Part shown: piece after piece, positions 529 through 13,575 of the stretch
Layout of the letters: the number at the start of each line of letters is the position of its first letter
How positions within the stretch are numbered: the first letter of the stretch is position 1
NCBI GenBank assembly: GCA_018238625.1
Contig: JABCSY010000105.1
Span: forward strand, 1-13,995
Direction: 5' to 3'
From: Promethearchaeota archaeon
GTDB lineage: Archaea; Asgardarchaeota; Lokiarchaeia; Sigyniarchaeales; SOKP01
Length of the DNA: 13,995 bases
Notes under the pieces: generated by a model
The model's input: only the letters and a program-made list of their open reading frames with translations
What the model was told of the DNA's origin: nothing
Databases searched by the model: none
Made by a program: the position numbers and the translations under genes

Positions 529-1749
529 ATGAAACCGTTTTCCTTATTAATCAAACCCGCTTCGGCAGATTGTAACCTTAGATGCGAATACTGTTTTTAC
601 ATAGATCACCTAGAAAATGTAAAGAAAAAACCTCGAATGTCTGATGAGATATTGGAAATCATGATTAAAAGTTATATGGGCACTGATCAGAATAAACAAT
701 ATTCTTTTGGGTGGCAAGGTGGAGAACCTACTTTATTAGGTATAGACTTCTTTAAGAAAGTCGTAGAATTCCAACTAAAATACGCCCCACCTGGTTCTTC
801 AATAAGTAACGGACTTCAAACCAACGCTACTTTAATAACGGAGGAAATGGCTAAGTTTTTTGGGGAATACAAATTTCTTGTGGGTGTCAGTTTGGATGGA
901 CCGGAATATCTTCACGATCACTATAGAAAAACAATTAGTCAAAAACCAACCCATGCCTTAGTCATGCGCGGAATAGAGCGTCTTAAACGACACAACGTTG
1001 AATTTAATATTCTGACGTTAATTAACAACAAAACGGTAAAAAAAGCAAAAGAAATTTACCAATATCACTGCAATAACGGTTTTTATTTCCATCAATACAT
1101 TCCCTGCGTGGAGTTTGATGAGGAGGGTAATCTTAGACCTTTTTCTATTAATGGAGAAGATTGGGGTAAATTTCTCTCTGAGTTATTCGAGGAATGGATT
1201 AAAGAAGATGTGAATAGGGTTTCGATTCGTTTATTCGACTCAATTATGGAATATTTAGTTTACGGACACTATAACGTTTGTTATATGGGAAAAAGTTGCG
1301 TTCAATATTTTGTTGTTGAATACGACGGTAGCGTATATCCGTGTGATTTTTTTGTACGCGATGATCTATTATTAGGAAACATTAAAACAGATTCATGGGA
1401 AGACCTTTTATTATCTGAGAAGTATCAAAGTTTTGGAAATCAAAAATCAGATTGGAATAAAGAATGCGATTTATGCCCTTATCTTAATTTATGTCATGGA
1501 GATTGCCAAAAATTTCGCTTTGGCGCGCCTAACTTTTCAAAAGAGTTAAGCGTTCTATGCAAAGGTTGGAAGATGTTTTATTCTCGCACATTACCTCGTT
1601 TTAAAAGTATAGCAGAAAAATTTAAAGCTGAGCACCAAATTAACGCTCCAGCACCCTTTAAAACAAAAAAGATTGGAAGAAACGAGCCGTGTTCGTGTGG
1701 AAGCGGAAAAAAGTATAAATATTGTTGCGGAAAAATAAATACTAATTAA
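529..1749 (+). CDS. Anaerobic sulfatase-maturating radical SAM/SPASM enzyme (anSME, AslB/ChuR family) with C-terminal SEC-C motif
   Basis: [14 protein letters not shown] (CxxxCxxC), [24 protein letters not shown] cysteines (C..GKSC, YPCD, CDLC...CHGDC, LC) and C-terminal [18 protein letters not shown]. Confidence 0.93.
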
Positions 1750-8819: not shown

Positions 8820-9074
8820 ATGGTATTAGACAAAATTGTTAATGAAAAAGAAGTTACAATTACTAACCGTGGTATGATTACAATTCCAGCTGCGTTTAGG
8901 AAAATCTTTAATTTAAAAGACGGGGATAAAGTTTTAATAATTGAAGATGAAGGTACTCTTAAAATCATACCGATTAAAGATCCCGAAACTTTACGTTTAA
9001 ATTCTTATAATACTGAAGAAATGAAAAAAGAAATGGATAAATCTCGCAAAGAAGAATTGGAACGGGAAATATAA
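8820..9074 (+). CDS. AbrB/MazE/SpoVT-family DNA-binding antitoxin (VapB-like)
   Basis: VTITNRGMITIPAAFRKIFNLKDGDKV is the swapped-hairpin signature, followed by an acidic tail. Abuts the PIN gene (TAA-ATG). Confidence 0.92.
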   Translation: MVLDKIVNEKEVTITNRGMITIPAAFRKIFNLKDGDKVLIIEDEGTLKIIPIKDPETLRLNSYNTEEMKKEMDKSRKEELEREI

Positions 9075-9488
9075 ATGACGAATAAAGCTTGTCTAGACAC
9101 TGGGATTATTACACAATCATATTCTAAAGAACCCCCTAAGAGTATTTTACTTTTTATGGACTCAATTAAAGCGGGAAAAATTGAAGCTTATGTTCTTTCG
9201 CCTATAATTGTGGAGGTATTTTATCATATATGTAAATTGAAAGGAAAAGCAAACGCAGAAACAATGATTGCAACATTTCTTAAAACATATCCAATAAAAA
9301 TTGTGAATTTAAATCAATCACTTATTTTTAAAGCAGGTATATTAAAATGTCAGCATCGGGCAGAATTATCCTATAATGATTGTTATGCTATTGCTTTTTC
9401 CTTAAATAAAAAAATAACATTTCATACAACAGAAAAAAGCTTAAGTAAAATACTACCAACTCTAAAATTAAAAACTTATAGGTTTTAA
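9075..9488 (+). CDS. PIN-domain VapC-like toxin (ribonuclease)
   Basis: ACLDTGII, SPIIVEVFY, LSYNDCYAIA and TTEK supply the PIN acidic positions. Directly downstream of the AbrB gene. Confidence 0.9.
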   Translation: MTNKACLDTGIITQSYSKEPPKSILLFMDSIKAGKIEAYVLSPIIVEVFYHICKLKGKANAETMIATFLKTYPIKIVNLNQSLIFKAGILKCQHRAELSYNDCYAIAFSLNKKITFHTTEKSLSKILPTLKLKTYRF

Positions 9489-10992: not shown

Positions 10993-11970
10993 ATGGCTAT
11001 ACAATATAATAAAATGATTTTACACGGAATTCTCCAAGCCGTTTTATACATAGCTCTACCTTTAGTTCTGTTCGAAGTAATCTCAATGATGGGACTTGTA
11101 ACGTTCAGTCAAGAGTTTAAAATTACGATTATAATTATCGGAATTATAGGCGTTGTATTTGCTATGTTAAGGCATGCTTTTCCCAAAGACACTTCTGCTA
11201 ATCGTCTTGTGGCGTTTGGTTCTGTAGTCTATTCTGGTATTTATTTGTTTTATCTATTCGGTGGATTTAGATCTGGAGTGGCCTTAGGAACATATTCAAT
11301 TAATCTCCCTACAATTCAGGTGCTTTTAGGCTTACAATTAATCGCTTGGTTATTTTTAGCATCCTCAGGAATTAGAGCATTACAATATTTAATTGAAGCA
11401 ATTGAACTTCGTAAGAAGAAAGAATATAATGTTAGGATAAAAAAACAGTTTAAATTGAGCAAAGTTTTTAAAACTCTTGGCTTAATACTAAGCTTAGTCA
11501 TAATGGGATATTTTGGTAGCATAATCTATAGCGGAACGAACCTAGGCTTTAATATACACGATATAGCTCCTACTGACATAACATATGACGATGGAGGAAC
11601 ACCAGGACCACCGGGTCTTGATGACGATTTAAATATTACAATAACTTTTGATATTATTAATCAAGGAGTTTATGCTATTTATGACGTATACCTTGATGTA
11701 ATTATTTATACGGTAACAACAGATAATCCAATAGTACTTCCAGAATATACAAAAATAGGTGAATCGCTAGACAATTTTTATAGTACATTTCATTCTTTTA
11801 CAACGACACTTAATCAAGAAATAATAGTGAACATTGATACAGCATATATATTCGGGTTAGCTACTACCGATGCTGTTTTAGAGCTACAAATCTCATTCTC
11901 AACGTTGTACGCCGGAATTTTAATTGATGTAAATACATCAATTCAAACAGTATGGAATTCTTTAATTTAG
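10993..11970 (+). CDS. Hypothetical membrane protein (about 5 TM helices plus acidic Thr-rich C-terminal domain, probably extracellular)
   Basis: Hydrophobic N-terminal half, basic loop (RKKKEYNVRIKKQFK), a further TM helix, then a D/T/I/V-rich domain. No family recognised. Confidence 0.8.
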   Translation: MAIQYNKMILHGILQAVLYIALPLVLFEVISMMGLVTFSQEFKITIIIIGIIGVVFAMLRHAFPKDTSANRLVAFGSVVYSGIYLFYLFGGFRSGVALGTYSINLPTIQVLLGLQLIAWLFLASSGIRALQYLIEAIELRKKKEYNVRIKKQFKLSKVFKTLGLILSLVIMGYFGSIIYSGTNLGFNIHDIAPTDITYDDGGTPGPPGLDDDLNITITFDIINQGVYAIYDVYLDVIIYTVTTDNPIVLPEYTKIGESLDNFYSTFHSFTTTLNQEIIVNIDTAYIFGLATTDAVLELQISFSTLYAGILIDVNTSIQTVWNSLI

Positions 11971-12094: not shown

Positions 12095-12607
12095 ATGAAC
12101 GACGAAGAACCGCCAAGGCCTAGTGGATTACCAGCGGGTTCTAAAGCGCCATTATTTGATACAAAAGACATCTACGGAAAAGAAATGAATTTAGAAAACT
12201 TGATCACGGAATACGATGGAGTGTTAATTGATTTCTTTAGAGGAAACTGGTGAAGTCATTGCAAAAAACATTTAACGCTACTAACAGAAAATATATCCGA
12301 ATTTGAGAACAGAAATATTAAACTTATGTCAATAGCAAGCGATAGCGAAAGACTTCTGAAGAAATTTAAGGAAGAAAATAATTTTGCGGTAGATATGATA
12401 TCAGATCGTGGAGCAAAGATTGCGAAGGATTACGATGTTTACTGGTTTGCTCCCGGTGGAGGAGGGAGTGTAAATATTAAACAAGCGGTACCGAGTAAAT
12501 TTCTAATAAACAAGGACGGAAAGATTATTTGGACTTATATTGGTAAAGATAAGACTGATAGGCCTTCAATAAAGATGATGACAGACATTATTGACGAAGA
12601 ATTATAG
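12095..12607 (+). CDS. Peroxiredoxin-like (AhpC/TSA, thioredoxin-fold) selenoprotein, 170 aa, Sec at codon 53
   Basis: ATG 12095 reads MNDEEPPRPSGLPAGSKAPLFDTKDIYGKEMNLENLITEYDGVLIDFFRGNW-TGA(12251-12253)-SHCKKHLTLLTENISEFENRNIKL and continues in frame into the 12326..12607 ORF. The TGA sits at the first Cys of the family motif F(Y/F)RGxWCPxC. AhpC/TSA motifs lie on both sides (G.KAP.F; SD; AVPSKFLINKDGKI; DRP). A SECIS-like element follows the stop. Confidence 0.92.
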
Positions 12608-12608
12608 A

Positions 12609-12679
12609 ATCCCTTAAGAATGACTTGTGTGTAAAAAATATAGACGCACGATGACGAACCCCGCAAGGTTTTATGGGAT
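12609..12679 (+). ncRNA. Eukaryote-like (Lokiarchaeal-type) SECIS element in the 3' UTR (cis-acting RNA)
   Basis: Manual folding. Helix I: AUCCCUUAAGA (12609-12619) with UUUUAUGGGAU (12669-12679). Core: A-UGAC (12620-12624) opposite UGAC (12652-12655), giving tandem G.A/A.G pairs. Helix II: UUGUGUGU (12625-12632) with ACGCACGA (12644-12651). Apical loop starts AAAAAA (12633-12638). Confidence 0.85.
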
Positions 12680-12684
12680 ATTAC

Positions 12685-12704
12685 TTATTTTTTTTAGATT
12701 TTTT
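12685..12704 (+). terminator. T-tract terminator directly after the SECIS
   Basis: TTATTTTTTTTAGATTTTTT follows the stem-loop, consistent with the SECIS lying inside the transcript. Confidence 0.5.
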
Positions 12705-12753: not shown

Positions 12754-13575
12754 CTAATAAGTATAGAAACCCTTTCCAGATTTTCTTCCTAAATCGCCTT
12801 TATCAACCATATCTTTAAGAGCTTGCGGTGGTTTATCGTTTGGATCTCCGCTTTCCTTATAGTAAGACATCTCAATATCCCAAACAACATCTAATCCAAC
12901 TTGATCCATTAAGGTAAAAGGTCCTTGCCCCATTTTAGTATATATTTTCCACGCTTGATCAATTACTTCAACATCAGCGTGTCCACCAGCCCATATTTTC
13001 AAGCTTTCTTTTTTAATTGCGCGCCATATTCGATTAAAAACAAAACCAAAACATTCTTTTTTAACAATTAACGGCGTAATTTCTATACTTTCAACCCAAC
13101 TCTTCCCTTTCTGAAAAGTCTCATCGCTAGTCTCGCTCCCTCTCATTATATCTGCCATAGGAATTGCTGTAAGATTATAAAAGTGGATGTTCAACACTTT
13201 ATCTTTTCGTTTAACAGAGTCTTCAAGCTTCGATATGGGAATTGAGGAACTATTAGTCGCTATTATAGCATGTAGTGGTGCGTATTTGTCGATTTCAGAA
13301 AAGATTTCTTTCTTCAAATCCAATTTTTCTGGGATTGCTTCTATAATTAGATCTGCATCTTTTACAGCTTCCGCAATAGTATCGTGGAATGAAACATCTC
13401 CAGAAACCTTTTTTATCCTTTTCCTTCTCGCAATTTTTCTCGTGTATTTATCAAACCCTTCGGGATTTGCGTCGTACATTCGAATCGAATAATCCTTATC
13501 CGCAGATTTTTCAACAATTTGCTTTCCCATGAAACCTATTCCAATAATGGACACAACTTTAATTTCATCAACCAT
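12754..13575 (-). CDS. 3-hydroxyacyl-CoA dehydrogenase family protein
   Basis: IIGIGFMG Rossmann motif, DLIIEAIPEKLDLK, ATNSSS, IHFYN, GFVFNRI, GPFTLMDQVGLD, LGRKSGKGFYTY. Confidence 0.95.
   Translation of the reverse strand: MVDEIKVVSIIGIGFMGKQIVEKSADKDYSIRMYDANPEGFDKYTRKIARRKRIKKVSGDVSFHDTIAEAVKDADLIIEAIPEKLDLKKEIFSEIDKYAPLHAIIATNSSSIPISKLEDSVKRKDKVLNIHFYNLTAIPMADIMRGSETSDETFQKGKSWVESIEITPLIVKKECFGFVFNRIWRAIKKESLKIWAGGHADVEVIDQAWKIYTKMGQGPFTLMDQVGLDVVWDIEMSYYKESGDPNDKPPQALKDMVDKGDLGRKSGKGFYTY

Follow-up and report, generated by a model that had tools for sequence, protein, structure and literature searches.

The locus described here lies towards the end of the window, the term used throughout for the whole 13,995-nucleotide stretch of DNA that was analysed, and its features are all on the forward strand. 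A single reading frame extends from the ATG at 12095 to the TAG at 12607 and is interrupted solely by a TGA at 12251-12253, which is codon 53. With this TGA translated as selenocysteine (Sec, U), positions 12095-12607 give a protein of 170 residues, referred to as PrxL, which carries FFRGNW-U-SHC at residues 47-56. The coding sequence (170 codons, one of them for Sec, and the TAG) is supported by the frame itself, by Pfam, and by structure prediction. Codon 53 is the first position of a UxxC redox box, and the second is Cys56, encoded by TGC at 12260-12262; it is the sole cysteine of the translation, none being found outside the box. Two Pfam families extend across the TGA, AhpC-TSA (E = 2.5e-23, residues 15-146) and Redoxin (E = 6.9e-18, residues 14-159). 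Under translation table 11, the same frame is broken into open reading frames (ORFs) of 52 amino acids (12095-12253) and 93 amino acids (12326-12607), and the database protein for the window (P0045) is the 93-residue piece; the PrxL gene is miscalled as this fragment. Behind the gene are an RNA element and a run of eight T's (12688-12695), which from its sequence is likely an archaeal transcription stop. A membrane protein without a Pfam family (10993-11970) is encoded upstream, and a 3-hydroxyacyl-CoA dehydrogenase (12754-13575) is encoded downstream on the opposite strand. PrxL appears to stand alone, as its neighbours show no link to it.

The in-frame TGA is a conserved feature of the family. 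Codon 53 is TGA in all 30 orthologous loci fetched from other genomes (73-92% identity), and codon 56 alternates between TGC and TGT in the same loci. When 151 genomes of the class were searched, 109 of the 111 rows at E<=1e-19 contain in-frame TGA codons, one to three each; the remaining two rows span residues 73-170 and 79-165 only and fall short of codon 53. Nucleotides 12251-12253 are unchanged in contigs of two DNA runs and one RNA-library run, from three studies, which differ from the window elsewhere. One of the DNA runs covering the TGA may be the source sample, and the RNA-library contig comes from a relative and shows 22 differences, such libraries being able to hold DNA. Run X7 spans 12456-12695 only and is silent on the TGA. 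TGA is not reassigned in this genome: it terminates 232 of 2004 long ORFs genome-wide, in-frame TGA is present in none of the 12 other window ORFs, and tryptophan is encoded by TGG in all window genes. The sequence-only reading of this DNA had claimed one frame broken only at 12251 and a 93-residue fragment left by gene callers, and had proposed that U53 should align with Cys or TGA in homologues. These points are borne out by the translation, by the table 11 ORF with its database entry, and by the orthologous loci and rows. It had also named a misread TGT or TGC as a possible source of the stop, and the contigs of the three runs show no such difference at the site.

Public protein calls present the family in altered form. 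Of 208 matches in a protein search, the best 120 were considered, and the 39 of these with at least 162 residues were aligned. Among these listed matches, tryptophan occupies the U53 column in 39 of the 39 aligned full-length homologues and replaces C56 as well in 13 of them. The other 81 of the 120 listed matches are mostly 93-119 residues long and cover the C-terminal 55-65% of the query; some of the listed fragments are labelled 'redoxin domain-containing protein, partial'. The tryptophans read as gene calls on short contigs in which TGA was translated as Trp, and the TGA at codon 53 in the DNA of the orthologous loci, through which alone this was checked, confirms them as such. As public calls cut the PrxL family at the UGA, inventories of Asgard redox genes miss its active site.

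A 71-nucleotide element at 12609-12679 begins 2 nucleotides past the stop codon, and its sequence, alignment, folding, and covariation identify it as a lokiSECIS, which is type I eSECIS-like. In the MFE fold, an outer (lower) stem is formed by AUCCC at 12609-12613 and GGGAU at 12675-12679. The kink-turn-like core consists of AUGA at 12620-12623 and of GA(C) at 12653-12655. Between its halves, an upper stem of nine positions, with the 5' arm at 12624-12632 and the 3' arm at 12644-12652, carries the 11-nucleotide apical loop AAAAAAUAUAG at 12633-12643. In the window, this stem contains eight standard pairs and one C.U mismatch, at the first stem position. A third arm, read from the sequence, is a mini hairpin on the 3' side (AACC-CCGCAA-GGUU, 12657-12670). 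Across the 30 aligned orthologues, the AUGA, three A's of the loop (AAA), the closing G-A, and the GAC are invariant. The lokiSECIS features listed by Mariotti et al. (2016; PMC4989117), in the portions of that paper available to us, are AUGA, a 9-bp stem, an 11-nt loop with an A-rich start and a final G, and then GA; the window element has every one of them. The same portions state that standard SECIS tools fail on Loki. Rfam gave no match at 12609-12679 up to E=10, and its five weak matches elsewhere in the window (E 2.6-9.9) are chance.

Support for this predicted structure comes from covariation. RNAalifold calls the upper stem from the 30 orthologues, with compensatory changes in seven of its eight pairs. 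When the helix is counted as nine pairs, 88.9% of cells pair against 72.0% in shuffles, and 0 of 500 shuffles reach the observed value, a count that is not a probability because the orthologue sequences are related. Double changes occur in 59 cells against 21.7 in shuffles and are seen in eight of the nine pairs, and in slid controls 25.6-60.0% of cells pair. In the MAFFT alignment, the outer stem and the mini hairpin lie in several registers, so pair counts were limited to the upper stem. An outer stem of at least 4 bp is present in the MFE fold of 28 of the 30 orthologues against 213 of 600 flank-shuffled controls. For the mini hairpin, the corresponding counts (19 of 30 against 348 of 600) are not above control, and the single-sequence fold of the 3' UTR is no stabler than shuffles (z -1.16). 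Four of the 30 orthologues (L032, L034, L039, L040) have a PrxL frame that ends at the UGA of the SECIS AUGA, the stop lying inside the SECIS core, and several others have a TAA stop within the SECIS 5' flank. The window element shares with the eukaryotic SECIS (kink-turn, AUGA_AA_GA) its 3'-UTR site, the AUGA, the GA, and unpaired A's in the apical loop; unlike the eukaryotic form, its upper stem is shorter (9 positions) and a third arm is added on the 3' side. The available parts of Mariotti et al. (PMC4989117) state that no SBP2 was detected in Loki.

The genome was scanned with the pattern AUGA-N9-N10G-N9-[AG]A; a match needed eight or more of the nine stem positions to pair and no fewer than four A's in the first five bases of the loop. 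This gave six matches, against none in the reversed genome, and one of the six is the window element. Another stands directly behind HdrA and then VhuD, with two TGA codons each (G000:C32:13600-16230, minus strand; L052:162-2625). The two proteins, of 658 and 157 amino acids, have one common lokiSECIS, located 10 nucleotides past the VhuD stop, and an HdrA-VhuD arrangement with a shared SECIS is published (PMC4989117, in the portions available). One match at the start of contig C200 lies, as judged by eye, behind an apparent second VhuD C-terminus at the contig edge. In five of the six matches (window, C7, C32, C200, and C201), an outer stem is present and a 3' mini hairpin of differing sequence follows the GAC or AAC, and together these parts make the predicted SECIS a three-way junction. 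The examined texts of the two Asgard SECIS papers (PMC4989117, PMC11227280), both partial, contain no mention of a third arm. The match at C97:31066-31100, which follows a 41-residue ORF with CYTU, was judged to be chance; its stem is weak with three G.U pairs, and it is without outer stem or third arm.

The genome also encodes the machinery for Sec synthesis and insertion. SelD is present as two adjacent genes on contig C148 with one TGA each, which score 196.9 and 166.3 bits (cut-off 125), and SepSecS at C107:14407-15708 (+) scores 480 bits (cut-off 224.85). For EFSec (about C107:9536-10996, minus strand, 486 amino acids), the best family is selB at 237.8 bits versus 148.9 for EF-Tu, which is just short of the NCBIfam cut-off of 242.25. 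PSTK on C116 is likewise assigned by its best family, at 145.7 bits, below the NCBIfam cut-off of 290.5. A tRNA-Sec candidate at C107:14173-14328 (+) is found just ahead of SepSecS, with EFSec about 3 kb away. Its anticodon is UCA, its acceptor stem has 9 bp and its T stem 4 bp, the variable arm is long, and the discriminator base is G; it carries insertions in the D region (~33-35 nt) and the T loop (~30-31 nt), with approximate borders. The candidate is visible only after in-silico removal of both insertions: in a grid of 11,520 excision variants, aragorn reports tRNA-SeC(tca) in 2921, with the expected 5' end in 2597, and the commonest T-loop excisions are of 30-31 nt. A Loki tRNA-Sec with a 31-nt T-loop intron, and one intron only, is described in the available parts of Mariotti et al. 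(PMC4989117). Plain aragorn on the genome finds 12 tRNAs only, tRNA-SeC being absent, and the Rfam tRNA-Sec model gives three matches below cut-off, all of them ordinary tRNAs.

The AlphaFold2 model of PrxL has a mean pLDDT of 92.4 and places U53 just before a helix (residues 54-65) and after a strand (residues 42-47). In the model, this position between strand and helix is the usual place of the nucleophilic Cys of thioredoxin-fold proteins. The nearest folds found by Foldseek are Bcp4 (3hjp, TM 0.83), AhpE, PrxQ, and ResA. For proteins of the AhpC/TSA Prx-like type, the sequence-only reading gives FxRGxWCPxC at the redox-box site; a typical peroxiredoxin has a PxxxT/SxxC active site with a conserved Arg. 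The BCP/PrxQ/AhpE group (PDB 3hjp, 2ywn, 2cx3, 4x1u) contains the nearest solved folds, at TM 0.73-0.83, and C56 aligns with its peroxidatic Cys; PrxL differs in sequence, at an identity of about 20-24%, and in that R49, U53, and Q130 sit at the Pro, the Thr of TxxC, and (in 2ywn) the Arg of the BCP-type chains 2ywn and 2cx3. We take these three to be catalytic positions of peroxiredoxins. In the alignment to these two chains, only the Cys of the typical active site is kept in PrxL. The available text of PMC4989117 states T/S-x-x-Cys as the peroxiredoxin active site. In ResA/TlpA (PDB 4nmu, 1st9), a W-C-x-x-C box lies at the helix start, and U53 aligns with the first Cys and C56 with the second Cys of the ResA box. 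No NCBIfam model reaches its cut-off on PrxL; the best match is ResA with 55 bits against a cut-off of 170, and PrxL further differs from ResA/TlpA in having Sec for Cys and neither signal peptide nor membrane anchor.

The gene belongs to a family that is already known, and its interpretation as a selenoprotein is correct. In the portions of Mariotti et al. (2016; PMC4989117) available to us, two forms from Lokiarchaeota are described, PrxL.2, whose single Sec occupies the first position of the box, and PrxL.1 with two, and PrxL is without Cys outside the redox box. Huang et al. (2024; PMC11227280) find that 43.2% of the Asgard archaea using Sec have Prx-like selenoproteins, and describe type I eSECIS-like structures; a 2026 review (PMC13188914) lists a 'Prx-like thiol:disulfide oxidoreductase, UxxC, UxxU', both sources likewise being available in part. 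Of the features that define Asgard PrxL, those found here are the fold, UxxC with TGA, a single Cys, the lokiSECIS, and the Sec machinery, with EFSec and PSTK below cut-offs. Like PrxL.2 of Lokiarchaeota, the window protein combines an AhpC/TSA-type fold with Sec for the first Cys of CxxC, a lokiSECIS after the stop, and a Lokiarchaeial host. There is no difference of substance from PrxL.2 as described in those portions, and the window gene is another genome's orthologue. The UxxU proteins PrxL.1 (Lokiarchaeota) and SelL (aquatic animals and bacteria; Shchedrina 2007, as cited in PMC4989117) agree with the window protein in fold and box position, whereas its second box position is Cys (TGC), not Sec; the SelL-related model NF040769 scores 51.9 bits on PrxL against a cut-off of 120. 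In relatives, there are PrxL paralogues with two TGA codons (UxxU type), frequently as a tandem copy a few hundred bases downstream of the one-TGA gene, as at locus L037 (G049:C3:11919-12419), where a one-TGA PrxL has a tandem paralogue with TGA at both box positions. A search of this genome with the window PrxL as query did not find a two-TGA copy. The sequence-only reading had placed U53 at a conserved Cys and expected Sec machinery in the genome; the alignment with ResA supports the one, and the two SelD genes, PSTK, SepSecS, EFSec, and the tRNA-Sec candidate support the other. Its further statements, that Sec-containing Prx-like genes are reported in Lokiarchaeota and that the class is known, agree with PrxL.2 and the lokiSECIS in PMC4989117. 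As both the family and its RNA signal have been in the literature since 2016, the window gene is an annotation correction and no discovery, and the value of the finding lies in correcting the UGA-cut gene calls of the family in public data.

Taken with the reading frame, the conserved TGA, the covariation of the SECIS, the machinery genes, and the fold, the locus at 12095-12607 is very probably a PrxL.2-type selenoprotein with one Sec, whose UGA is decoded via the lokiSECIS. We hold it to be highly probable that the gene encodes a real small thioredoxin-fold redox protein in which the apparent stop is read as Sec. In the proposed mechanism, the UGA at codon 53 would be decoded as Sec by Sec-tRNA(Sec) delivered by EFSec, and decoding would be directed by the lokiSECIS of the 3' UTR (12609-12679), 369 nucleotides downstream of the UGA. 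The thioredoxin/peroxiredoxin fold would place the U53-S-H-C56 redox box where the first long helix begins. The selenolate of U53 would attack an oxidised substrate, which may be a disulfide or possibly a peroxide, and C56 would resolve the adduct as an intramolecular selenenylsulfide, which some reductant would then recycle. Sec insertion itself, the substrate, and the reductant are what we infer here from the foregoing observations.

Other explanations of the interrupted frame were weighed against Sec decoding. The source genome was assembled from a metagenome, in 201 contigs and with a contamination of 7.59%, which leaves some room for the view that the TGA arose through faulty sequencing or assembly or that this PrxL copy is a pseudogene. 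However, the codon is the same in all 30 orthologues of other genomes, all 109 strong matches reaching the site carry an in-frame TGA, the contigs from three runs and three studies are unchanged there though different elsewhere, and both halves of PrxL are conserved as protein; this view is refuted in practice and has a negligible probability. If the UGA instead terminated translation, as TGA ordinarily does here at the end of 232 of 2004 long ORFs, the products would be a 52-residue N-terminal peptide and/or the 93-residue fragment only, and the 3' hairpin, with the T-run after it, would be a terminator or stabiliser. The predicted fold needs both halves, as the strand at 42-47 and the helix at 54-65 flank the site, and the 93-residue piece is without the redox box. 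The hairpin, for its part, shows the SECIS hallmarks AUGA, AAA, and GA(C), all invariant, and recurs behind HdrA-VhuD with its four in-frame TGA codons, and termination is accordingly very improbable. The tryptophans at the U53 column in public gene calls on short contigs could suggest that the UGA encodes not Sec but a standard residue (Trp, Cys, or Arg), or that the code has changed genome-wide. Those residues, however, read as artefacts of calling TGA as W, Trp is TGG in the window genes, in-frame TGA is confined to PrxL among the window ORFs, and a SECIS and the full Sec pathway are present, which leaves such readthrough extremely improbable.

The chemistry of the protein leaves more room for a rival. 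Selenolates react fast with peroxides, the best-matching folds are peroxiredoxins (Bcp4 3hjp at TM 0.83, AhpE, and PrxQ), and AhpC-TSA is the best Pfam family, all of which could point to a true peroxidase whose peroxidatic residue is Sec. Against this, R49, U53, and Q130 occupy the Pro, Thr, and (in 2ywn) Arg positions of BCP-type chains, and the box is of the CxxC type of ResA and thioredoxin. The PrxL subclass, moreover, is called uncharacterised in the available text of PMC4989117. We regard a peroxidase as unlikely, though a serious possibility, and a thiol:disulfide oxidoreductase as the preferred reading.

A 36-codon mini-ORF with four Cys, zinc-ribbon or rubredoxin-like, is found at G000:C201:62302-62409 on the minus strand (L074:1501-1614:-) and ends in FK-TGA-TAA. 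A complete three-armed lokiSECIS follows 43 nucleotides later (G000:C201:62221-62255, minus strand), with no large gene before it. A homologue of the mini-ORF is present in 54 of 101 genomes from the family. Of the distinct sequences, 36 in number, 31 end in K-TGA followed by a stop (26 TAA, 5 TAG) and five in K-TGT-stop, and the two codons before the terminal TGA vary synonymously. As a control, 20 of 232 long TGA-ending ORFs of this genome have TAA or TAG next in frame. Most TGA forms have the SECIS pattern within the 120 nucleotides that follow them. None of the five Cys forms has it, and all five are located 79-111 nucleotides upstream of a PrxL gene in other genera. Counted over both forms, the mini-ORF is 79-250 nucleotides upstream of PrxL in three other genera (8 genomes), as five K-Cys-stop and three K-TGA-stop versions, the latter with their own lokiSECIS; in this genome it stands apart from PrxL. 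From these sequences, Sec and Cys would replace each other at the terminal residue of the mini-ORF, which is linked to PrxL by gene neighbourhood. It is a candidate for an unreported selenoprotein that ends in Sec, and it may be a partner of PrxL. A second small ORF (about 50 amino acids, four Cys, EAFCGAKP) occurs 200-350 nucleotides after the mini-ORF (L080-L083, L086, L087, L091, L103, L111, L112) or after PrxL (L029, L035, L094), which suggests a small conserved gene cluster.

It is conceivable, and in our judgement rather doubtful, that PrxL forms half of a two-part selenium/sulfur redox relay, of which the other half is the 36-37-residue, four-Cys mini-protein with terminal Sec/Cys. Such a relay, if true, would mean an unreported selenoprotein family with C-terminal Sec and would give the first candidate substrate or electron donor for the uncharacterised PrxL. 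A complex prediction of PrxL (with W at the Sec site) and a Cys-ending mini-protein scored 0.00, the partner's own fold being uncertain.

A different small ORF with a lokiSECIS is present on contig C7 (G000:C7:5139-5309, plus strand; L051:2840-3013). It encodes a 57-residue single-pass membrane protein with an in-frame TGA in the context NGGG-U-SC, and its lokiSECIS (G000:C7:5327-5361) begins 14 nucleotides past the stop. There are 16 non-self matches in the family, of which 15 have exactly one in-frame TGA; in the 14 ORFs examined, the TGA follows a glycine run, mostly GGG, and a Cys follows 2-5 residues later. Neither this family nor that of the mini-ORF has a significant Pfam match. Neither was found in the literature passages and the one supplement file covered by the search. 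A search for small Asgard selenoproteins or a C-terminal-Sec zinc ribbon found nothing in the literature covered, and one supplement file of Huang et al. contains no mention of zinc, ribbon, rubredoxin, transmembrane, hypothetical, or hairpin. On sequence evidence, the C7 family is a candidate for an unreported selenoprotein family. The two small SECIS-bearing ORF families and the third SECIS arm are the parts of this analysis that could matter further.

Two minor features were noted elsewhere in the window. At 8820-9488 (+), an ORF of 84 amino acids of the MazE/AbrB antitoxin type abuts a PIN-domain ORF of 137 amino acids, and the two look like a VapBC-like toxin-antitoxin pair. At 529-1749 (+), a radical SAM/SPASM protein with a C-terminal SEC-C motif is encoded.
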